Below are positions 5,509 to 55,739 of a stretch of 64,000 nt of DNA, one piece after another. Made by a program: the position numbers and the translations under genes. Source of the DNA: Candidatus Daviesbacteria bacterium (GTDB lineage: Bacteria; Patescibacteriota; Microgenomatia; Daviesbacterales; UBA10151); contig JAQTZF010000001.1 in the NCBI GenBank assembly GCA_028687915.1, forward strand, positions 866,634 through 930,633, read 5' to 3'. The notes beneath the pieces were generated by a model. The model was given only the letters and a program-made list of their open reading frames with translations, was not told the DNA's origin and did no database searches. The stretch's first letter is position 1; each line of letters begins with the position of its first letter.

Positions 5509-8500
5509 TATGGATTAACCTCCCTAACGATTAACTCATGAGTGCTAATATGGTAAATCTTCCCATTAGAGATAGAGGCTGGATTAGATCTGCCTTCTAA
5601 CTGAGTCGACATTTGCCGGTTACGGAAACCTGCACCAATTTCTGTCCAGCGGCGGTTAGTAAGATCAAAAGCACCGGTGTAGTTAGCATTGCCTTCCTGA
5701 ACATGGAAAGAAAAAATTGTATTACCGGCACAAGTTGGATTTAAGTTCTCGTCAGCATTACCAAACCCTGCAGGATTATTAAAGTTAGAAAGTGAGAATG
5801 GCTGACCATTTCTACCATAATTATCAAACAACACATCAACTAATCTTTGGCGACCCAAATCTAACCGTCCCCAACCACTCATTAAAAAGCTCACTGGTAT
5901 TACCAAATACCCATCTTTATCAACACAAGGAGCGCTTTGGGCACCACTTAAACTTTGGGCATTCCAGTTTGGAACTGCAGTTGTTTCTCGACCAGTTGTT
6001 TCATCAAGGAGATAAATAATTTTATCTGTATATTTACCAGGATTATTTTGATAATCCTGCATCACAGTATCCTGAACACTCATAGCTAAAGGCACCTGAG
6101 TTAAATTACCAGCAGCAATCGTTGGTCCATTAGTAATATACCAGCTTGCCTGAGGGCTAGCAGCATCCCAAAATTCATTTAAAGGATACCCTGGATTAAT
6201 ACCAGCATTAGCTCTTTTAGCCTGAGGTATTATTACTACTTTTCCCTGGGTAACAACTGGCCAGTATTCTTTGAAAGAGACACCTGGAATTTTCATATCT
6301 GCTCCTTGAGCATTTTTACTTCTCCAAGAAAGAGTACCATCAGCTGTATTAATGGCGTATACATACATATTCATCCCCCCAAGAAAAGCTCTGTTTATAT
6401 TATCAGCTCCTTTATTAAAGGCAGCAGTCATCATAATAGGAGCCCCAGTGTTATAGCTCCAAAGTACATTACCATTATCAGGATTTAGACCATAGAAAAT
6501 ACCATCATGTCCTCCCAGCATTATTTTATTATCAGCTATAAGTGGAGCAGCTGAAAAGCCCTCTTGATTTAGTTTCTTCTGCCAAACCTGATTACCATTC
6601 ATATCAACCGCATATACTGAACCATTTAAAGTAGCAAAGAAGACTTTATTGTCATAAGCTGCAGCTGAGTTTAGGATTGATCCATCAGCTTCAAATTTCC
6701 AAACTACCCTTCCTACATTTGCATTTAAGAGGTTAGGATTTACTGCATCAATCGCATAAAGAGTTGGTTTTTGACCATTAGATCCTTCAGTGCCTACAAA
6801 AACTTTGCCCTGATAAATAATAGCCTGTGTTTGAGGATGAACCCTATCGGGCTGGAATGGATAAGTCCATGAAACCTTAAATCTTTCATGAGGGAGAAGA
6901 GAATAATTAATATTAAAGTTCTCAGCTGAATAACCTGTATGTTGTGGATCTTTCCCAACCTGTGGCCAATCATTAGGATTACCTGGAACAGGTGTTGGAG
7001 TAATATTTGAGGTAACAGTTAACATATTATTTTTGTTATCTAAAGTATTACCTCCGGTTGTTGAGGCTTTAAAGTAATATGTAGGATCACCCAAAGATAT
7101 ACCAAGTAATCTTAATGGGTTAAATTCAGATACCCATGATCCTACTCCCTGCCCCTGGGTATTTAAAGTAATAGCCTGAGGCTGAATGTTTGCTAATATA
7201 TCATCCAAAGCTGTAGATCCATATCTTCTAACCTCAAGGTTAACTTGTTTGTTAGCACAATTAGTATCACCTACTACATTCAGATTAACAGTACTTCCCT
7301 GTGTAGCAGTTAAAGTATTCCAGGCAACAGCGGTTAGATTACATGGAACTGCTCTTAAGTCTACCCAAGTAGTTGTTCCATAAGCTTCAAGAGTTCTTGA
7401 AAGCCTTTCCCAATAGAACAAATCTTCTTTAACCCAAGGAATATCCAAATACTTCCTGAGTTCATCCCCACTCTTTTTAGCTCCCAAAGACTTCATTAGG
7501 AAAATTGACTGAATATTATGTGGATTTACGTACATAATTTCTCCAGCAAAGCTATTCATACCTCTTTGCATATAAGTGATTGGCATAGCTTGATCAAAAA
7601 ACTGTTCATATCTTTGGACATCAGATGAACCGAAGTCAGTAAGCAATCTAGCTACTTCTGGAGTTAGCTCTCGAAGCTGAGGAATGTTAGTATCCATTGC
7701 CCCAGATCTTTGAACAAATTTACCTGCAGTACCATCCTGACCATTAATCCAAGCACTGGTATTTGGATCACTTCCATTCCCATCAGTTGGCCTTAAATTA
7801 TTAAGGTAGCGAAGCCTGGCTTGCATTGCTAAAGTTGCTAAATTAGTGGCCCAAGTAACCTCTGTTTGATCGTTCATATGTTGGGCAATACGGGCATAAG
7901 CAATTAATGCTGATAGCCTGCGGTTAGCGGAATCATACACATTAATACAAGAAGCACCAATACAAGATGGGTCCACTGATGCCAGACCCAACAACCCAGC
8001 GTCTCCACTAGTTAATTCACTAAGAACAGACCCTTTTACTCCATTAGCACCAAAATTGGGATTTTTAATCTGATCCCAATGACTTTCAATCCATGTCCAA
8101 TCATTAGCTTGATAAGCATAGCTCCAAATATTATAAAGTCGGTCAAATGTTTTTCTGGTAGGAACAAAAGTGCCACCCCAGGTAATACCTTCACAAGGAC
8201 TTTGGCTAGTACCGCCTTGGAAATTACAATACCTGAAAGGTCCCGGAGCAAATGGTTGACGAGACTTATTATTATCCTGGGTTACAGTACTATTGGTATA
8301 TATTAGACCATCGTTCCAGGGATAACGTTTTTCTGGTGAAAAAGAATCAATTGGATTCAAATTTGAATTATTCCATTCATTATTTACAAAAGTTTTGATC
8401 TGATTTTGTAGGTTTGATGACAAATAAGGATAAGCCAATGAAAGATAGAAGGCTGTTTCTGATGGTTCTAAGTAATAACCCTTAAAAACTTCCTTACCTG

Positions 8501-11500
8501 GAATAAAAATCCATGGGTTAAGCCTGCCTGTTGTTAAGAAATTATTAACTTCTGTCTCCAAAGAAGTTCTTAAATCAGCTGATTTATTGATATCTATACT
8601 AGTCTTTGTAGGCACTTCCCAAATATAATGCTCAAGCTCAGCTTGAGTTGGAATATTTACAGCTGCTGCTGAAGATGTGGCAATGCTTTGTCGAGGATAA
8701 GGAGTAATAGTTGGTATTGGGGTTGGACTTACTCCTGGCAAGTGACCCTGAACCATAGCCACTATTCCACCGTAGTTAACAATAATTTTATCACCAGAAA
8801 CAGATGGGCCATAAGAAGTGCCACCTGCAAAATCATTAGGCACTAAACCAAAATTAAGAGTTCGGGGATTATGATCTACTAAGTGGTTTGCAAAATTATC
8901 TCTTTCACCAATGATTGATTCTAAATCACCAGTGTTAGTATTTATACTTCCTAACCCTGCCCATTGATTAGTATAAATTTTATTACCAGCTGCGGAAAAA
9001 GCTGTTGTTTCGTCTCCAATCATCCAAATATTGGAGTTAGATTGATTATTACAAGAAACAGTATTACAAAAAACTGGGTTATTGCTTGGGTTCCTCAGAG
9101 TAACATTACCAGTGGCTGGATCCATCTGGCCAAAGCCATTCATAATATACCATTGGTTATCATTATCGTAGTCAGAGTAATAGCTGCGATTTAAAACCCA
9201 AAGTTGCCCAGTGTTGTTAACTACTGGAGGTACTCCAGGATAACCATTACCTGCTGTCCAGAGAATTGGAGCAGTGTAAGATTTTTGGCCATTACTAATA
9301 TTCAAAACATGGAAAGTTTCAAATTGGGGCCTACCGGAAATTGTTTGGCCATTTGTAGCAGTAAAAGTATTCCCTTGTAAGTAATTGCGGATCGTATTTT
9401 GTTCCCTGGTAATACCAGCAGAATCAGTTGCCACCCTCCACTGGAAACAAGGGATATTATTACGATTAAGCCAACCACGACTCGTAGGATAGTCATTACA
9501 ACCAGCGCTAAAGGCAAGTAGTTTTTCTTCCTCGTTTAGAACAGAATTAACATCATCATTTGGAGCTGAACGGAAAATAACTTTATCATTGCTAATTACT
9601 GGATAGTTTCCTCTTAAGCTTTGACCAGCTAACTGAGATGATTCCCAGAGTTTTGTACCTGTAGTATTAAAGGCATAAGCCTTCATGTCTTCTGCGCCAA
9701 AGTAAATAGTTCCATTAGCAAAAGCTGGTGAAGTTAAAATTGCTGTTCCAATATTAGCTTCCCAACGTCTATTGCCATTATTTTTATCAATAGCATAGAA
9801 ATAACCATCACGGCCACCAATGTAAACAGAATCATTTGTCACAACTGGAGTGGCCCAAAAACCACCTTGTCTGCCACTTCTAAAAGTCCACTTAACAGCG
9901 GGCACACCATTTGTAATACTGTTGCCATCAATGGCATAAACATTACCATCTAGGGAGCCTACATAAACCACCCCTCCTTCAACTGTTGGAGAATTTAAGA
10001 TTCCACCAATGAATTGTCCAGATTGAGGATATCGCCAAGCCTGAGCACCAGTATTAAGATCCATTGCATACATTGAGCCATTGGCAGTACCAATATAAAC
10101 TAAGTCCCGGTTATTCGGTATATCACGAGCAATTGGAGGTTGGTAACCAGAAACTACTTCTTCCTTAAATTCTGACCAAAAATCACGATACCAAACTTTG
10201 GTATAAGGTCCATCAGGACCATTTTGGGTTGATCCGGATCTTTGATTATCATGAGCCAAAGTGGGCCAATCAGTAGAGCTAGTTGGAATTCCTCCGGTAA
10301 CAGTAAGTAAACTGCCTTTATTATCAATAGTATTTCCTCCAGCTACATTAGCTCTAAAATAATATTGAGGATTAGTAAATGGAATTAATGGATTATGTTC
10401 TGCTACCCAGGTGGTAGTAGCTGAACCTGAAGAGATATTAGCTGGTTGAGGTTGGATAGTAGCTGGAATATCATCAATTAATAATCCATTTCTTCTTACC
10501 TCAAAGTTAACCGTCTTACCATTACAATTATTATCTCCTGTAACATTTAGATTTATTGTTGATCCAGTAGTAGTGGTTTGAGTACTCCAGGAAGCTGTAG
10601 TTAGATTACATGCTGCTGGGGTTGGTGTAGCAGTAGGAGTAGGAGTTGAAATTAAGTCAGGATCAGCATTATAAACATTAATATTATCAAAGTAGGCTCT
10701 CAAACTATGTGAATGCCACCAATCTTGCACACCAACCGCTATTTGAGGTAGGTAAAAAGTCCCTGTTGAAGAATCTGTTATTTGAGCTACTTGAGTACCA
10801 TCAATCCAAAGGCTAGCAATAGCCCCTGTACCACTCCAGTCATAACTCCATTTCCAAGTCTGCCAGGTATTTATAACAGGAGCATTGGTTAAATCAGCAC
10901 TAATATTATTACCATTTAGTCCTCTAATATTAAATTGATATCTAGAAGTAGTTTGGTTATATGAAACCCACATAGTCCCACTATAAACTGGTGCCTGATC
11001 ATACCAAGCTAGAAAAACAGCTTGAGTAGTTAAATTAGATCTTAAATTAACATCAAGCTTGCCCCATAATTGCTTAGAAGCAGGACTTGAGACAGTTCTT
11101 AAAGCTACAGCTCTCATGCCTTCGTTAACTGCTGGTACAAAAGCATCCAAGCCTAACGAGCCTGATCTGGCAGCACTAGATGAAGCAACTAAAGTAGATC
11201 CTGTACCTAAAATAGAAGTACTAGTCCATTTGCTTAAGTTATTTCCCTCAAAATCATCATTAAAGATGGCTTGTGCAGATCCTGGTGTAGGAGTAGCAGT
11301 TGGAGTTGGTGTAGGAGTTGGTGTGGCTGTAGCTGTTGGAGTAGCTGTTGGGGTTGGTGTTGGTGTTCCACCTGTACCAGAAGTAACAGTTAATAAATTA
11401 GCTTTATTATCTATAATATTACCACCTTGAGTAGAAGCTTTGAAGTAATACTGTGGATCAGTAAATGGTATTAATGGATTATGTTCTGCTACCCATAATC

Positions 11501-48722: not shown

Positions 48723-50540
48723 CTAGGACTCGTAGCTTTTAGCCTGGACCACAAACATTTTGGCATATTTACCATTAAGTTTCATAAGTTCTGTATGAGT
48801 TCCACTTTCTGAAATCTTTCCTGCTTCTACCACCATTATTTTATTAGCATTCTTAACTGTAGAAAATCTGTGAGAAACTAAAATTAAAGTCCTGTCTTTA
48901 TATAGTTTTTCCAGCTGGTTAAAAATTTCAAACTCTGCTTCCGGATCTATGGCACTGGTTGGCTCATCCATAATTAATACTGGTGCCTGCATATAAAATG
49001 CCCTGGCAATAGCTACTTTTTGCCACTGTCCAATTGATAAATCCTCCCCATCTTCAAATTGCCTGCCTAAATATTGGTCATATCCTTTGGGGAATTTTTC
49101 AATTAAATCTGATACTCCGGCTAATTTTGCTGATTGTTTCATTAAATCATTATCTTCTTTTAATGTATCCCCTAAAACTATATTTTCTCTGGCTGTAAAT
49201 TGATATTTCACAAAGTCCTGAAAAAGAGTTCCCAAAAACTTATACCAATTATTTAAACTTAAGTCTTTAATATTTACCCCATTAATTAATATTTCCCCGC
49301 TATCTGCATCATAAAAACGACAAAGTAATTTAATAATAGTCGTTTTCCCTGCCCCATTTTCTCCCACTAAGGCAATACTTTCACCGGGATTAATTGTAAA
49401 TGAAACATTATCCAGTGCCTTACGTGTCTTGGTATAACTAAAACTTACATTTTTAAATTCAATTACAGGAGGTTTAATTTCATCAAAAATAACAGGGTTT
49501 TCTTTTTCTTTAATTTTCTTGGGAAGACTCATGACTTCCAGGAAATTATCCACAGACAATTTATTAGAATAAACCCAGCCAAAATATCCTGCTACATTTC
49601 CAGCCTGAATGTTTAACTGATCAATCATGGTTATAACTAAAGCAAAACTACCAATGGTGAATGATCCTGAAATAACTTCAGGAAGTTTTAATGAAGCAAT
49701 TACCAGAAGAACTATAGTTTCTAAAATTAAAGGTGCAATAGTAGTCCAAACATAATTATTAAGAGGTTTTTCATAAAGACCTAAAAGATATTCCTGAATA
49801 CCTTTATATTTATCCAATAAAAAGTTTTTAGCCTGAAAAATCCTTATTTCAGATAAAGAAGTTCTTTCTGAAAACAGAGTCTGAAAATACCAAAGTTTTC
49901 TCACCTCAGGTATCCCGGAACCATAAAAGGACCATTCTATATCTCCATATCTTGTCTTTAAATAAAGCCTTGGTAATACTGTTATTGTAATAACAAAAGG
50001 CACCCACCATAAAATTGGTAATAAAATTATGTAAGCTGCCAAAAAGCTAATAAGACCAGTGATAACATAACTTAAAGCCCTTAAAAAATCAGGTACCCTC
50101 CAGGCAACAGTATCTCTGGTTTTAGCAATCAAATTTTGAGTCTCAAAGTTTTCCAGATCAGCCATATCCAAATCAGCCATTTTGGAATAAAAAAGAAAAG
50201 TTAAATAATTTTGTAATTTATAACGAAAAAGGTAGTCACAATATGTTTGATATAAAACGTTATACAATACATCCTGAACAAAATTAACCACATACCTTGC
50301 CATCAAAACTACTATTAATATTAAAGGAATTGTCTTCGTACCTAATTGTTGTGAAACCTGTAAATAATCTATTAAATATTTTGTGCTTAATCCTGCTGCT
50401 GCCGGGCCCAAAGCACCCAAAGCTGCTGTACCGTAATACATTACTGTAATCCGTGCATCCATCTGCCAGGCAATAGCCAGCATCTTTTTTGCATCAATAA
50501 AGATTTCTTTTAATTTGGTAGTAATCCTAATTTTTTCCAT
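48723..50540 (-). CDS. ABC exporter, fused permease/ATP-binding protein
   Basis: Walker A 'GENGAGKTT', signature 'LSIGQWQKV', Walker B 'LIMDEPTSAID'. 6 TM N-terminus. Confidence 0.85.
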   Translation of the reverse strand: MEKIRITTKLKEIFIDAKKMLAIAWQMDARITVMYYGTAALGALGPAAAGLSTKYLIDYLQVSQQLGTKTIPLILIVVLMARYVVNFVQDVLYNVLYQTYCDYLFRYKLQNYLTFLFYSKMADLDMADLENFETQNLIAKTRDTVAWRVPDFLRALSYVITGLISFLAAYIILLPILWWVPFVITITVLPRLYLKTRYGDIEWSFYGSGIPEVRKLWYFQTLFSERTSLSEIRIFQAKNFLLDKYKGIQEYLLGLYEKPLNNYVWTTIAPLILETIVLLVIASLKLPEVISGSFTIGSFALVITMIDQLNIQAGNVAGYFGWVYSNKLSVDNFLEVMSLPKKIKEKENPVIFDEIKPPVIEFKNVSFSYTKTRKALDNVSFTINPGESIALVGENGAGKTTIIKLLCRFYDADSGEILINGVNIKDLSLNNWYKFLGTLFQDFVKYQFTARENIVLGDTLKEDNDLMKQSAKLAGVSDLIEKFPKGYDQYLGRQFEDGEDLSIGQWQKVAIARAFYMQAPVLIMDEPTSAIDPEAEFEIFNQLEKLYKDRTLILVSHRFSTVKNANKIMVVEAGKISESGTHTELMKLNGKYAKMFVVQAKSYES

Positions 50541-50823: not shown

Positions 50824-51558
50824 ATGAAAGATGCTGAACTAACCACCTCAAAGCTGGAACAACATCAAAAAATAACCCGTCAACCAAATAATCTTATGCT
50901 GCCTACACCCGAAAAATTACAAATTATTAATCTTTTAGAAGCTAACCTTAAAGAGCGAGACTATTTTGCTTCCCAAGTAGATAGATGCAAAGGAAAGTTA
51001 CATGTTTTGACTCATCCTTTTTATCATGAAGAATTTAATGGATATCCAGAAATACCAGGTTATGCCAAAGCGAGAGATATACTCATTAAATCTTGTATTA
51101 CACATGATATACCCTTAGTCATCTTTGAAGAATCATCTAAATGCCGAACTCTCTCATTAAAAATTCCAGAGATTCCAGGAATTTTATATGTAGTAAAAAC
51201 GGAAGGAGCTTCAAATTATTTAGAATATGATCATTATCAAAATCAAAAAAAACTCACTGCATTGTTTAAATGGGCCGGAGTATCTCGTATTGTAGCTGGA
51301 GGACAATATATGTTTCTTAGAAAATTTCCCCAAGATGTAAAAAACCCTCATGATAGACGTACACTTAATGATTTAGGATTCTTAAAACATTTAAGACCTA
51401 ACGCGAAAAAATGGATTGATCAAAGGATAATTCCTGAAAAATGTGCTGGAGGAATAGCTAGTAACTTTTTAATATCTGGTTTTGATGTTTCTCTTTCCCC
51501 TGTGTCTTCCCCTCATAACTTTTACCTAGGACATTGTAAAATAGTTCAAGGAAGCTAA
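50824..51558 (+). CDS. Hypothetical protein
   Basis: ORF track; 'YPEIPGY' motif. Confidence 0.5.
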   Translation: MKDAELTTSKLEQHQKITRQPNNLMLPTPEKLQIINLLEANLKERDYFASQVDRCKGKLHVLTHPFYHEEFNGYPEIPGYAKARDILIKSCITHDIPLVIFEESSKCRTLSLKIPEIPGILYVVKTEGASNYLEYDHYQNQKKLTALFKWAGVSRIVAGGQYMFLRKFPQDVKNPHDRRTLNDLGFLKHLRPNAKKWIDQRIIPEKCAGGIASNFLISGFDVSLSPVSSPHNFYLGHCKIVQGS

Positions 51559-51584
51559 TAAAGATTAAAAGTTAATTTTATTTC

Positions 51585-51644
51585 TGGTAATATCTGGCAA
51601 TATTAGGAATTATTTGGTAATATTAGGCAATATATGGCAATGTC
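51585..51644 (+). repeat. Six tandem phased 10-bp direct repeats (consensus TGGYAATATT) overlapping the start of the wHTH ORF
   Basis: tggtaatatc/tggcaatatt/aggaattatt/tggtaatatt/aggcaatata/tggcaatgtc read directly from the sequence. Confidence 0.85.
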
Positions 51645-51870
51645 TGTTAATTCTTTGTTTATCAAGCAAGCTGCTGTTTTAGAAGTAATCGAAGAATATA
51701 ATTTAATTAACTTTTCCACTTTAAAAAGACAATTTTTAGGCATCAATGATAGAACCTTAAGATATCATCTAAAAAGATTAGTAGATTTAGGCTTTATCAA
51801 AAAAAGAGGTACAACTAAAGGCGTATATTACGAAGCTCTAGCCTCACAAGGACCAACCTTGCAAGGCTAA
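51634..51870 (+). CDS. Small winged-helix DNA-binding protein
   Basis: 'STLKRQFLGINDRTLRYHLKRLVDLGFIKKRG' wHTH recognition-helix/wing pattern. 78 aa. Confidence 0.55.
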   Translation: MAMSVNSLFIKQAAVLEVIEEYNLINFSTLKRQFLGINDRTLRYHLKRLVDLGFIKKRGTTKGVYYEALASQGPTLQG

Positions 51871-51934
51871 TATTAAAGTTTAATATTTTTTACTGCTTGA
51901 CAGTAACCCATAATAATATTATCCTCCTTTTTAT

Positions 51935-52336
51935 ATGGTTGACAATGCAGAAATAGCAGTCTTCAAAGAATCGCCTTTAAAAACTGAAGGAATTTGTTCA
52001 TCAATGAGTGTGCTACTAAATAGCTTAAGAGAAAACCCTGCTATTATAGGGACTTCTTATCATTCTTATTATAAAGAAGACTCGGTTAGCCAGATTTTAA
52101 GCTTAACAAGTAAACCACTAGATATACGGAGAATGCTATTTTTGCCTGATGGTATTTTAGTTGATAGTGATTTATCCGAATACTACTTGAAATCTTTAGA
52201 ATCTAAAACACCTTATGTAGGAAAAATACAGGCTTTTTTTCATAACCAACCAAATTTTTTTCTTGAAATTACATATTCGAGTGTTGAAGATAGAGGCTAT
52301 CCAAAAGGTGAAGAACTTCTTTATCAGCGCTCTTAG
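51935..52336 (+). CDS. Hypothetical protein
   Basis: ORF track. Confidence 0.5.
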
Positions 52337-52345
52337 TTCGCTAAG

Positions 52346-52440
52346 AATTCAACCACGTCTCCATCCTGCATAATATATTCTTTACCTTCAGTCCTTAACC
52401 AGCCTTTAGTTTTAGCTGCAGCAAGTGAGGCTATAGCCAC
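52346..52440 (-). pseudogene. Diverged duplicate of the ychF 3' end (encodes ...[32 protein letters not shown]), not attached to an ORF
   Basis: About 75% nt identity to 52996..53090. Translated 27/32 identical to the YchF C-terminus (TGS domain). Upstream frame is closed by stops. Confidence 0.7.
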
Positions 52441-52461
52441 AAAAGGCGTCCCCTTTCAAGG

Positions 52462-52983
52462 CTAAGGAAGATTTAAGTCATCAAACATTTTAAAAGCATC
52501 TGGGTGAGGAGTGCCCCCTGCTTTAAGTAAAGCTAAGTTATATTCCCTAAAAACAGGGATCCTTTTTGTAAGGGTATCTAGGGTGGTACCGTTTATAAGC
52601 ATCGTTGTTTCCATATCATCATCCACTTGTCTTGAAAGTTTTGTTCTCTTTATAGCCAGAGCTAATTTATCGTCAATAAAACCAGATTCTCTTTGAGAGA
52701 GTTCGATACTAATAGTGGGTTTATCATTATTTTCACCTACAAGATTTTTAAGTTTTTCAATAAGCACAGACATCATACCATCGGGATGTATATCCTCTAT
52801 GGTTGGAGAACGCTGTAAAGCATAATCCAATACTGTGGTTTTTATCCGTTCTAAAAATAAAAAAGTGTGTAAATATTTTAACGTTCCAACTTCTAGTTGT
52901 AGCTTTAAAATCTTTTCAGCAGATTCCCCGCTTGTTAGTTGTTCTGCTTCGTCAATAAAATCACCGTCATCAAAATCAACCAC
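52462..52983 (-). CDS. Hypothetical protein, inserted between ychF and its duplicated 3' end
   Basis: ORF track. Confidence 0.55.
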   Translation of the reverse strand: MVDFDDGDFIDEAEQLTSGESAEKILKLQLEVGTLKYLHTFLFLERIKTTVLDYALQRSPTIEDIHPDGMMSVLIEKLKNLVGENNDKPTISIELSQRESGFIDDKLALAIKRTKLSRQVDDDMETTMLINGTTLDTLTKRIPVFREYNLALLKAGGTPHPDAFKMFDDLNLP

Positions 52984-52993
52984 TTTATTCTCC

Positions 52994-54100
52994 TTAACTA
53001 CTCACTAAAAACTCAACAACATCACCATCCTGCATAATATATTCCTTACCTTCTGTTCTAAGCCATCCTTTTGTTTTAGCAACAGATAAAGATCCTGCTT
53101 CTATTAATTTTTCATAAGGGATGACTTGAGCCCTGATAAAACCTTTTTCAAAATCAGTGTGAATTACTCCAGCTGCTTGTGGTGCTTTACTTCCTCGCTT
53201 TATAGTCCAAGCCCTAACTTCTTTTTTTCCCTGGGTAAGAAAAGATATTAATCCTAATAGCTCATATGCTTTTACAATTAATCTTTCCAACCCTGTTTGT
53301 TCTATCCCCAACTCATGTAAATATTCCTTTTTTTCTTCATCACTATAATCTGCCAGTTCTTCTTCCAACTTTGCACAAATCACTACTGCATTGTCATTCT
53401 GAGTGATTAGCGAAGAATCTCGCAGCTTTTCTGCATACTCATTTTCTGAAACATTGTAAACATATAACAAAGGTTTAATTGTGAGCAATGGCAAAGTTCT
53501 AAACCATTCTTTCAGCCTTTCATCTCCTATATGATAATTACCAAGTATTTTCCCCTCTCCTAAGTCATCCTGAACTTGTTTCAGGATCTGAAGTTTCTCA
53601 GATTCCAATTGATCCTTAGCTACTTTTGCCTGCTTTTCCTGAGCAGCAACTAATTTTTCCACCACAGATAAATCTGATAAACCTAGCTCTGTTTCTATTA
53701 TTAATTTATCTGCATCAGGACTTTCTGATCCTTCCCTAATCACATTTTCATCATTAAAATCTCTAACTACCTCTATAATTGCATCAACTTCCCTAATATG
53801 TGATAAAAACTGGTTCCCTAAACCTGCACCAGTTGCAGCACCTTTAACTAAACCTGCAATATCTACAAACTCAACAACCGCTGGAACAATTGGAGGCAAA
53901 CCTTCCATTTTTTCTTCTTTGCTGACTAGCTGAGCAAGCTGATCTAGCCGACTGTCCGGCACCGAAACCACCCCAACATTTGGTTCAATGGTAGCAAAAG
54001 GATAATTTGCAGATAAAGCCACCCTCTTTTTCAAAAGGGCATTAAAAAGGGTACTCTTCCCCACATTTGGCAAACCAACAATCCCAACTTTCAAACTCAT
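52994..54100 (-). CDS. ychF: Ribosome-binding ATPase YchF (Obg-family GTPase)
   Basis: 'GIVGLPNVGKSTLFNAL' G1 motif; C-terminal TGS domain. Confidence 0.9.
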   Translation of the reverse strand: MSLKVGIVGLPNVGKSTLFNALLKKRVALSANYPFATIEPNVGVVSVPDSRLDQLAQLVSKEEKMEGLPPIVPAVVEFVDIAGLVKGAATGAGLGNQFLSHIREVDAIIEVVRDFNDENVIREGSESPDADKLIIETELGLSDLSVVEKLVAAQEKQAKVAKDQLESEKLQILKQVQDDLGEGKILGNYHIGDERLKEWFRTLPLLTIKPLLYVYNVSENEYAEKLRDSSLITQNDNAVVICAKLEEELADYSDEEKKEYLHELGIEQTGLERLIVKAYELLGLISFLTQGKKEVRAWTIKRGSKAPQAAGVIHTDFEKGFIRAQVIPYEKLIEAGSLSVAKTKGWLRTEGKEYIMQDGDVVEFLVSS

Positions 54101-54230: not shown

Positions 54231-55739
54231 TCATTTAAGAAAAAATTTATTAAAACCTTGAATATATTTTAATAATCTTTTTTTACTCCTTGGTTTCACT
54301 ATACCTTCTTTAAAATCGCCTTTAATATATTTAATCTCTGCTATACCATCCTTAATTTCTACATTTTCTTTATCTCTAATATCTTCTTTAATATTTTTCC
54401 TAAGATAAAATTCCTTACCATATTCCTCAACCAACTCATCATAATACTTATCGCCATCGCCTCCTTTATCAAAAAATGCTCCTGCCTTTATTCCTAGATG
54501 TTTTGATATTGCTAAGTAGCTTCGTATTTTTGAAAAACCACCTACCCCATAACCGTAAAATTCAAAATTAAGAGGAATTCTTTCCTCTGTGCATAATTTC
54601 TCTAAAAGAGATTTATCCTCTTGCCCTTCGACAAATACTACTTTATTTGCAAAGAAATATTCTTTAGCCACTACATCTAGCTGATAAGGTTTCTTCCAAT
54701 CTTCATTTATAATTGTTTTAAGAGGCTCAAAATCTCTATTTAGATTAGCTAAACTTACTTGTCCAGATGAATCTTTAAATACCCGTGCTATATTCGCCCC
54801 GTTTTTTAAATCTTCCCAATTTACAAAATAAGGAGAATGGGTTGCTATAATAATCTGCATTTCTTTGGATTTCTCTGAAAGAAAATTAGCAAGTTTCTTT
54901 TGAATTTGCGGGTGCAATCCTAATTCAGGTTCATCAATCAGGACAATATGATCAGAAGAATTTATAAAAAAGATACTTAATATCTTAATTAAATTAATTA
55001 CTCCCCCACCCAAATAACTCCCTCTGTGCTGTATTTTATTTTTGGTTTTATATGTAAAAATATATTTATCTCTAGATTTTCTTGATATTGTCCATGAATA
55101 AAAATGAGGTATAAAACCTCTAACAGCCTTATTAAAGGCATCTCTTGTTTCTTTTTGCTCATATATAGCAGCCAATATTTTTCCAAATTCGTCATTTAAA
55201 ATTGAAGAAGCATACGATCCTCTATCAGCTTTGTATATTCTTTCTGTAACCTCATAATGATAATTTTTATCTTTTACATCCTCATCATATAATTCAAATT
55301 CATCTTCCCATATTCTTCTAGATGAAAGATACCTTATATGGTACGGACTTACAGAAAATAAGGTGTTATCAACGGTCTCCTTTACTCCCCACTTATTTCT
55401 TTTTTTATAAATCCAATCAAAAGAGTCTCCCTTACAATCTTTAAGGCATATCCGCGTTAATTCGTTATGGTGTTTTTCATCTGTTTCTAAGGTTCCATAC
55501 CTCTCTTCAAAATTTGCTAATGCAGTGAGAATAGTAGTCTTTCCAGAATTATTCTCACCTATAATAATAGTTAAACCACTCCCTAATGTGCCATTAGGAT
55601 GAGCAAACTCTACTACTTGTTCTGATAAAAAACCTCTAAAATAAGCTATGGAGAGTGCCTCTAAAAAGTTATGCTCCTCGTGTATTTTTTGATCCAGCAT
55701 GTTGCTCATTTTCAAGAAAATTTTACCATATCTCTTCAA
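54231..55739 (-). CDS. OLD-family ATP-dependent nuclease (ABC-type ATPase + Toprim), standalone (class 1-like)
   Basis: Walker A 'GENNSGKTT'. 'LIDEPELGLHPQ' (Walker B / D-loop). 'IATHSPYFV' H-loop. C-terminal 'VVFVEGQEDK' and 'DKGGDGD' resemble the Toprim E and DxD motifs. Confidence 0.65.
   Translation of the reverse strand: MKRYGKIFLKMSNMLDQKIHEEHNFLEALSIAYFRGFLSEQVVEFAHPNGTLGSGLTIIIGENNSGKTTILTALANFEERYGTLETDEKHHNELTRICLKDCKGDSFDWIYKKRNKWGVKETVDNTLFSVSPYHIRYLSSRRIWEDEFELYDEDVKDKNYHYEVTERIYKADRGSYASSILNDEFGKILAAIYEQKETRDAFNKAVRGFIPHFYSWTISRKSRDKYIFTYKTKNKIQHRGSYLGGGVINLIKILSIFFINSSDHIVLIDEPELGLHPQIQKKLANFLSEKSKEMQIIIATHSPYFVNWEDLKNGANIARVFKDSSGQVSLANLNRDFEPLKTIINEDWKKPYQLDVVAKEYFFANKVVFVEGQEDKSLLEKLCTEERIPLNFEFYGYGVGGFSKIRSYLAISKHLGIKAGAFFDKGGDGDKYYDELVEEYGKEFYLRKNIKEDIRDKENVEIKDGIAEIKYIKGDFKEGIVKPRSKKRLLKYIQGFNKFFLK

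Follow-up and report, generated by a model that had tools for sequence, protein, structure and literature searches.

Self-regulation has been described for two Fic proteins that carry a DNA-binding domain. CccR from Yersinia pseudotuberculosis is a Fic toxin with a C-terminal helix-turn-helix (HTH) that represses its own promoter, and its operator consists of two inverted 10-bp boxes, AGATAATCAT-N26-ATGATAATCT, placed near the -35 and -10 positions (PMC9755527). SoFic from Shewanella oneidensis, an anti-phage protein of the class II Fic type with a winged HTH (wHTH), binds as a dimer to the 100 bp that immediately precede its own start (bioRxiv 10.64898/2026.07.09.737422). The DNA binding of a related enzyme, CbFic2, is not sequence-specific. 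On the precedents of CccR and SoFic, autoregulation by Fic-wHTH proteins can be regarded as established. In a different wHTH family, the OmpR/PhoB type, whose members have a receiver domain and are controlled by phosphorylation, the proteins bind head-to-tail to direct repeats with a spacing of 10-11 bp that lie on one face of the DNA, comprise several units and overlap the promoter, as in the F1-F3 sites of ompF and in the pho boxes.

Here we describe an array of 10-bp direct repeats (units U1-U6, Table 1) at the start of a small wHTH gene in a genome of Candidatus Daviesbacteria. By the window we mean the whole 64-kb stretch of DNA that was analysed. As judged from its sequence and from comparison with the systems above, the array most likely serves a small DNA-binding gene, derived from a Fic toxin or defence gene, both as promoter and as self-repression site. 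The units follow each other at exactly 10 bp throughout and without a single indel, as can be read directly and as confirmed by Tandem Repeats Finder (period 10, 6.4 copies, 74% matches, 51583-51646), in agreement with the preliminary description of six phased TGGYAATATT repeats overlapping a start codon. The phase never slips, but the copies vary: two of the six units match TGGYAATATT exactly, one has a single mismatch and three have two or three mismatches. What is constant is GG at positions 2-3 together with an AAT/ATT-AT core. The overlap with the start codon is as described: the ATG of the 78-aa ORF is located at the junction of U5 and U6, and because it begins at the final base of U5, U6 encodes M-A-M-S.

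Table 1. Positions of the array, its units and features discussed in the text. Positions without a locus name refer to the window.
Feature	Position	Strand	Sequence, basis or remark
Array, six 10-bp units U1-U6	51585..51644	+	Sequence, Tandem Repeats Finder, shuffle test, relatives; proposed multi-site operator
U1	51585		TGGTAATATC
-35-like hexamer CTGGCA	51594..51599	+	18 bp upstream of TAATAT; putative, weak, 4/6
U2	51595		TGGCAATATT
U3	51605		AGGAATTATT
U4	51615		TGGTAATATT
U4, extended -10-like (TGn + TAATAT)	51615..51623	+	TGGTAATAT; equals family unit -2; putative
U5	51625..51634	+	AGGCAATATA; final unit ahead of the ORF; ends with the A of the ATG
U6	51635		TGGCAATGTC
78-aa stand-alone wHTH gene	51634..51870	+	Homolog of the wHTH at the C-terminus of SoFic-like Fic proteins; proposed binder of the array
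AT-only hairpin	51869-51887		-3.1 kcal/mol, z 0.17
244-aa ORF	50824-51558	+	
133-aa ORF after the wHTH gene	51935-52336	+	
ychF 3'-end duplicate (scar)	52333..52440	-	79 nt, 83.5% identity; not in the regulatory element
173-aa ORF	52462-52983	-	
ychF	52994..54100	-	Pfam; conserved convergent neighbour, marks the locus as chromosomal
502-aa OLD/Gabija GajA-like ORF	54231-55739	-	ATPase-TOPRIM
MITE-like insert, L004	2141-2205		e.g. GTCATCCTGAGCGAAG...CGAAGGAT (MITE-like inserts)
MITE-like insert, L013	2146-2205		
MITE-like insert, L038	2143-2187		
MITE-like insert, L012	1677-2205		
ORF after small wHTH gene, L166	4286-5173		
ORF after small wHTH gene, L168	4273-4629		
ORF after small wHTH gene, L169	4256-4552		
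ORF after small wHTH gene, L003	3341-3700		
ORF after small wHTH gene, L002	3247-3774		
ORF after small wHTH gene, L011	3219-3554		

The window was shuffled 200 times with preservation of dinucleotides, and a unit was counted if at least five of seven core positions matched. The longest phased run was 2-4 units in the shuffles, never five or more, compared with six in the window; the array exceeds chance expectation. No second array was found within the 64 kb. The left part of the window has tandem repeats of another sort (1039-1166, 2324-2518 and 11283-11367), with periods of 6, 12, 18 and 36 bp (GTTGGT, TCCACC and the like); they apparently sit inside large ORFs, which would code for low-complexity protein repeats.

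The 78-aa gene product had been described as a small winged-helix protein, and this assignment holds. Pfam returned HTH_20, HTH_12 and HTH_24, all below threshold, and an AlphaFold2 model (pLDDT 84) has the wHTH topology H-b-H-H-b-b, with wHTH proteins of the ArsR/MarR/BlaI/TubR type as its top structural matches in the PDB (TM approximately 0.7); a sequence search of the PDB with a profile of the small proteins gave marginal generic wHTH matches only. The protein is identical to a hypothetical protein in a Candidatus Daviesbacteria MAG (CPR/Microgenomates), and 18 other small relatives of 68-82 aa share 61-78% identity with it.

Relatives were collected by a back-translated pattern scan with one genome per species, giving 44 loci, nearly all from Microgenomates (Daviesbacteria, Levyibacteria, Shapirobacteria, Blackburnbacteria and Gottesmanbacteria); many of the records bear placeholder names such as 'uncultured Gammaproteobacteria', and such labels are unreliable. 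A short gene is present in a few of these loci, and in most of them the match is the C-terminal domain of a Fic-wHTH protein of about 330 aa. These long relatives match the Pfam Fic family (E 1e-16 to 1e-19), the PADLOC SoFic model (E 6.7e-55) and the solved SoFic structures in the PDB (E approximately 1e-14), the latter with alignments that reach into the wHTH, and in one long form (L006) both the catalytic HPFLDGNGR and the inhibitory SARIEG motifs are intact. The 78-aa protein is 45-62% identical to the long forms over their C-terminal 60-70 residues and aligns with positions 295-353 of the 361 in the PADLOC SoFic profile (E 1e-3). Since it matches the C-terminal domain of Fic-bearing relatives, the window's gene is a stand-alone wHTH of the SoFic-like class II type. 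A Fic domain or the catalytic motif HxFx(D/E)GNGRxxR was not found in the 78-aa protein with Pfam, the inhibitory helix motif (S/T)xxxE(G/N) is absent from it, and it does not have the N-terminal dimerisation helix of known Fic-wHTH regulators.

The small wHTH genes are under purifying selection, with dN/dS values of 0.06-0.32 where dS was measurable, dS being saturated in most pairs. They are also each other's nearest relatives, and together with the purifying selection this points to a single ancient loss of the Fic domain, after which the genes were maintained for a long time, with no recent decay. Loss in the window's lineage is the simpler assumption, given how much more widespread the Fic-wHTH architecture is, and one small form (L002) still starts with MSIP-, compared with MxIPP at the Fic N-terminus. 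When 71 domains from long and short forms were compared, conservation in the protein was highest in two blocks, the beginning of the recognition helix (eRTLRYdLKkL) and the wing (K.GtTkGvyY), and it runs parallel to the invariant core of the DNA units.

When the relatives were inspected for the array, as the preliminary description had proposed, 40 of the 44 loci proved to have a phased array with the core GGnAAnAT, which precedes the start on the coding strand, before long and short genes alike. The period is exactly 10 bp over the 5-8 units found in the window and its relatives, the units are without exception direct repeats on a single strand, and no reverse-strand units were found in 41 loci. 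The array usually adjoins the gene start and is displaced by insertions of 15-530 bp in about 10 loci; the four loci where it is missing comprise two decayed genes (L018 and L045) and two genes at contig edges (L039 and L044). An entire group of uncultured bacteria has thus kept the same array before related genes. The short form retains array and wHTH despite the absent Fic domain, and in the closest relative, L166, the array is noticeably degenerate.

In the reverse direction, the DNA pattern GGNAANATNNGGNAANATNNGGNAANATNNGG was searched on metagenome contigs and gave at least 120 loci. Among the matches listed, at least 34 have a Fic/wHTH gene directly downstream, most of the others are perfectly homogeneous satellites of another kind, two Fic-type arrays lie at contig ends (L064 and L085), and one (L120) is left without explanation. 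Other arrays lie beside remnants: in L143 (7-75) the array and the first six Fic codons are fused to the last wHTH codons, in L113 (3934-4060) and L137 (8898-9040) only the last approximately 20 wHTH codons are left, in L154 (about 6840-7134) the array stands by itself approximately 260 bp from ychF, and L049 is probably a deletion remnant. Because the search from protein to array and the search from array to protein agree, array and wHTH family are linked both ways. Internal deletions that leave the array and a few terminal codons recur in Fic-wHTH genes (L143, L113, L137, L154 and, at 324-620, L089), which suggests repeated loss of the toxic middle of the gene.

Within the main family the GGnAAnAT core hardly varies. 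A distant Fic-wHTH subfamily with 23% identity is represented by L068, with recognition helix NIETAKKSLQAL and wing KQGTTKGAWYE. At 602-651 this locus has its own phased array upstream, built from AGGTAwAAT units, and a deletion remnant of the same subfamily (L089) likewise has its own phased 10-mer array; these variant arrays are single cases, from which the phased layout may recur in more than one subfamily. Outside the CPR, a tblastn search of PLSDB with the long form gave homologs that were all below 35% identity, and upstream of those covering the wHTH (Fusobacterium and Marinobacter) a phased array was absent.

To describe the anatomy of the array, 55 non-redundant loci were aligned by register. 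In the three units closest to the -10, conservation of the core GG..AA.AT reaches approximately 90-100%, compared with 83-96% in one unit further out; the next unit beyond is weakly conserved, and the one after that shows no consensus. This conservation of the DNA core contrasts with saturation at synonymous sites in most gene pairs. Reading toward the ATG, the unit consensuses are tGGcAAtATc, tGGcAAtATT,.GGcAAtATt, TGGTAAtATt and agg.aA, and the fourth base is T in 94% of the 55 loci at unit -2, compared with C in 50-60% at the other units. Unit -2, U4 in the window, resembles an extended -10, and a -35-like consensus, yTGGCA (4-5 of 6 matches), spans the boundary between units -5 and -4 in the family; in the window the two elements together fit the consensus at 8 of 12 positions. 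This -35/-10 assignment is plausible and weak, its single basis being position-specific conservation across the family, and a simple consensus scan called no promoter in the array. The gap between the hexamer and the ATG is exactly 6 nt in 24 of the 55 loci, the geometry of a leaderless transcript, and 10 nt in 15 of them, the window included. As the offset of the ATG from the array is 5, 7 or 9 nt, no single geometry applies to every locus. The AGG located 6 nt upstream of the window's ATG could be a weak Shine-Dalgarno site; in the family unit -1 (agg.aA) the distance from AGG to ATG is variable.

Taken by itself, this anatomy could mean that the array is a promoter only, in which tandem extended -10-like elements or phased A/T tracts recruit RNA polymerase or bend the DNA for it and the wHTH protein does not bind, as each unit, like TGGTAATAT, resembles TGnTATAAT and the unit-specific conservation fits -35 and -10 roles. 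We consider this unlikely. Five or six phased copies with an invariant GG are more than a promoter requires, the array was found upstream of no other gene, neither within the 64-kb window nor in the regions flanking approximately 160 loci, and it tracks one wHTH family only, even after the Fic domain has been lost.

The overlap of the array with the ATG, and the fact that the RNase R winged-helix domain is the top Pfam match of many family members, could also be taken to suggest control at the mRNA level, with the protein binding GGnAAUAU repeats in the leader or over the start codon in a TRAP- or CsrA-like manner. This is very unlikely in our judgement. Most of the array would be untranscribed if TGGTAATAT is the -10, and the period equals one turn of the DNA helix. 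Moreover, MITE-like palindromes in four loci (L004, L012, L013 and L038) sit right after TGGTAATATG, and here the array has been displaced by 45-530 bp and has not eroded. That arrays stay intact at such distances from the ATG favours a promoter or operator at the DNA level over a translational operator. In three of five insert cases (L013, L038 and L009, the last with a short non-MITE insert) the array's own ATG is in frame with the Fic ORF. A search of positions 51300-52000 with the covariance models of Rfam 15 at E up to 1 gave no relevant match, and RNA folding of the array was no better than that of shuffled sequences (z +0.85); an RNA element was rejected on these results.

The reading that we regard as probable is that the array is a multi-site autorepression operator laid over the wHTH gene's own promoter. 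The promoter would consist of U4, TGGTAATAT, as extended -10 and of CTGGCA, 18 bp upstream, as -35, and its transcript would be nearly leaderless. Five or six sites, one helical turn apart, would lie over this promoter, and the wHTH product would bind them side by side, occlude RNA polymerase and thereby stop its own transcription. The layout may have been inherited from the SoFic-like Fic-wHTH proteins of Microgenomates, where the array would hold a toxin or defence gene at a low level; with the Fic domain absent in the window's lineage, a stand-alone repressor would be left with its operator. From the sequences and the described relatives we infer the binding of the protein to the units, the repression and the positions of the -35, the -10 and the transcription start. 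Several points count against the model: the weak consensus fit of the -35 and -10, which the promoter scan did not call, the variable offset of the ATG, the degenerate array of L166, the non-specific DNA binding of CbFic2, and the different mode of binding that direct repeats would require of a protein lacking the dimerisation helix. The cooperative operator and autoregulation envisaged in the preliminary description have gained indirect support, in so far as the array is co-inherited with the wHTH family and CccR and SoFic provide the precedent.

Compared with CccR, the likeness lies in the family, Fic plus C-terminal HTH, and would extend to autorepression through 10-bp boxes if the putative -35 and -10 of the window's gene are correct; in our own comparison AGGTAATATT agrees with the CccR box AGATAATCAT at 7 of 10 positions. 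The architecture differs, however, as CccR has two inverted boxes 26 bp apart whereas five or six direct repeats follow each other at 10-bp spacing here, and as CccR is an N-terminally dimerised protein whereas the window's protein has neither Fic domain nor dimerisation helix. The long relatives match the PADLOC SoFic model and the PDB chains through the wHTH, and SoFic binds its own promoter, but the SoFic upstream fragment carries irregularly spaced ATGTCGAT and ATCGACAT motifs and no phased 10-mers (the Marinobacter homolog has TCGACA motifs similar to those of SoFic), and the window's gene is the wHTH alone. Direct repeats would imply a binding mode unlike that of N-terminal-helix dimers on inverted or irregular sites. 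The array shares direct repeats and a 10-11 bp period, here exactly 10 bp, with the OmpR/PhoB sites, a likeness that concerns its possible working and not family membership; neither the 78-aa protein nor the long forms have a Pfam match to Trans_reg_C or a receiver domain.

The wHTH protein is a candidate binder, and the units might instead be read by another protein, such as a global regulator of the host or a phage protein, in which case the array would be an infection sensor for a defence gene. SoFic-type genes are indeed anti-phage systems (PADLOC; PMC12259885). We give this possibility little credence, in view of the strict co-inheritance of the array with the wHTH, the parallel conservation of recognition helix and wing, and the binding of homologs to their own promoters.

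The preliminary description had further suggested an iteron-like replication or partition origin of a mobile-element remnant, and thus an iteron- or centromere-like site on which the small wHTH protein would polymerise, as in TubR-tubC or Rep-iteron systems. A small wHTH protein with a short array of direct repeats is a combination common to these systems and the window, TubR and AspA are among the many wHTH proteins with a similar fold, and there are sub-threshold matches to RepC/RP-C (E 2e-4 and 4e-3). The suggestion found no support, and such an origin is extremely improbable. Genes for Rep, ParA or TubZ, or for a partner NTPase, were not found nearby, and the array is placed at a gene start in a syntenic chromosomal locus that lies beside ychF in many genomes; in most relatives it precedes the gene of a Fic enzyme. 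DnaA boxes were not found within approximately 1.3 kb, the nearest boxes with one mismatch being at 50284 and 54588. No AT-rich unwinding element, a feature the preliminary description had proposed to look for, stands out near the array in a fine AT profile, and the GC skew has no turn. With box search, AT profile and skew all negative, a replication origin was rejected. The same pattern gave 33 matches in IMG/VR, all of them homogeneous satellites and none with a Fic/wHTH gene; as no Fic-type array was present in these viral contigs, a phage or mobile association was also rejected. In five of the IMG/VR phage contigs (L177, L184, L185, L190 and L196) a row of 3-5 perfect AGGTAAAATC 10-mers runs up to an ATG (…AGGTAAAATATGGAAGAAGAA), a similar layout before an unrelated gene.

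The chromosomal setting is conserved. In at least 21 genome loci ychF is convergent with the adjoining Fic-wHTH or small wHTH gene, and rpsF-ssb-rpsR is close to the wHTH gene in the window and in L166; the wHTH locus is a conserved chromosomal position. The array had been placed within an island bounded by a ychF scar. The scar is real, but the segment it bounds (52441-52993) holds only the 173-aa ORF, and the array lies approximately 700 bp outside it, on the side that was ancestrally next to ychF. Scar and 173-aa ORF have the appearance of a small insertion in which the C-terminus of ychF was carried along or duplicated. The 173-aa ORF, between the scar and the intact ychF, has no family match and a homolog at the same place in L045.

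Other genes of the neighbourhood may be noted. Downstream of the window's wHTH gene follows a 133-aa ORF, with the scar just past it; all small wHTH genes checked except that of L119 are followed by a different, unrelated ORF on the same strand before ychF (Table 1), and the long Fic-wHTH genes mostly abut ychF directly. These ORFs could be variable cargo under control of the array, or mark an insertion hotspot. The AT-only hairpin after the wHTH gene was considered as a terminator and discarded, a z score of 0.17 not being evidence. Upstream, the 244-aa ORF has no match in Pfam, NCBIfam or PADLOC; homologs of it adjoin the small wHTH gene on the downstream side in L011 and on the upstream side in L045. 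Just beyond ychF the 502-aa protein matches PADLOC Old (E 4e-26) and GajA (E 2e-23), and the neighbourhood thus holds defence-type genes.

In the literature searched we found no description of a phased array upstream of CPR Fic genes. Undescribed there are the 5-8 direct repeats phased at one helical turn, their conservation across Microgenomates, and a lineage that has kept the array without Fic. Among the defence families of groundwater bacterial genomes, SoFic-type genes are reported to rank second in frequency (PMC12259885), and work on CccR, SoFic and the AS1 antitoxin has only begun to address how Fic toxicity is restrained. The array provides a precise candidate operator sequence for the CPR branch of the SoFic family. 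Conservation of non-coding DNA over phylum-level divergence is unusual, and the array is a rare concrete handle on promoter architecture, and on possible leaderless initiation, in uncultured CPR bacteria. The locus also illustrates that a repeat array beside a gene scar need not signal a mobile element.

A wider and tentative proposal, which we find possible yet doubtful, is that several CPR Fic-wHTH subfamilies share a phased operator of 5-8 sites on which the wHTH proteins polymerise head-to-tail over a near-leaderless promoter, and that the window's gene belongs to a long-lived Fic-less lineage of repressors with a role of its own. If this is true, the head-to-tail mode of binding would differ from the two-box palindrome of CccR, and the role of the Fic-less lineage could be the control of the variable downstream gene, or titration or a decoy function against Fic-wHTH proteins. 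The stand-alone wHTH is a natural separation-of-function variant, in which the DNA-binding half is maintained and the enzyme is absent.
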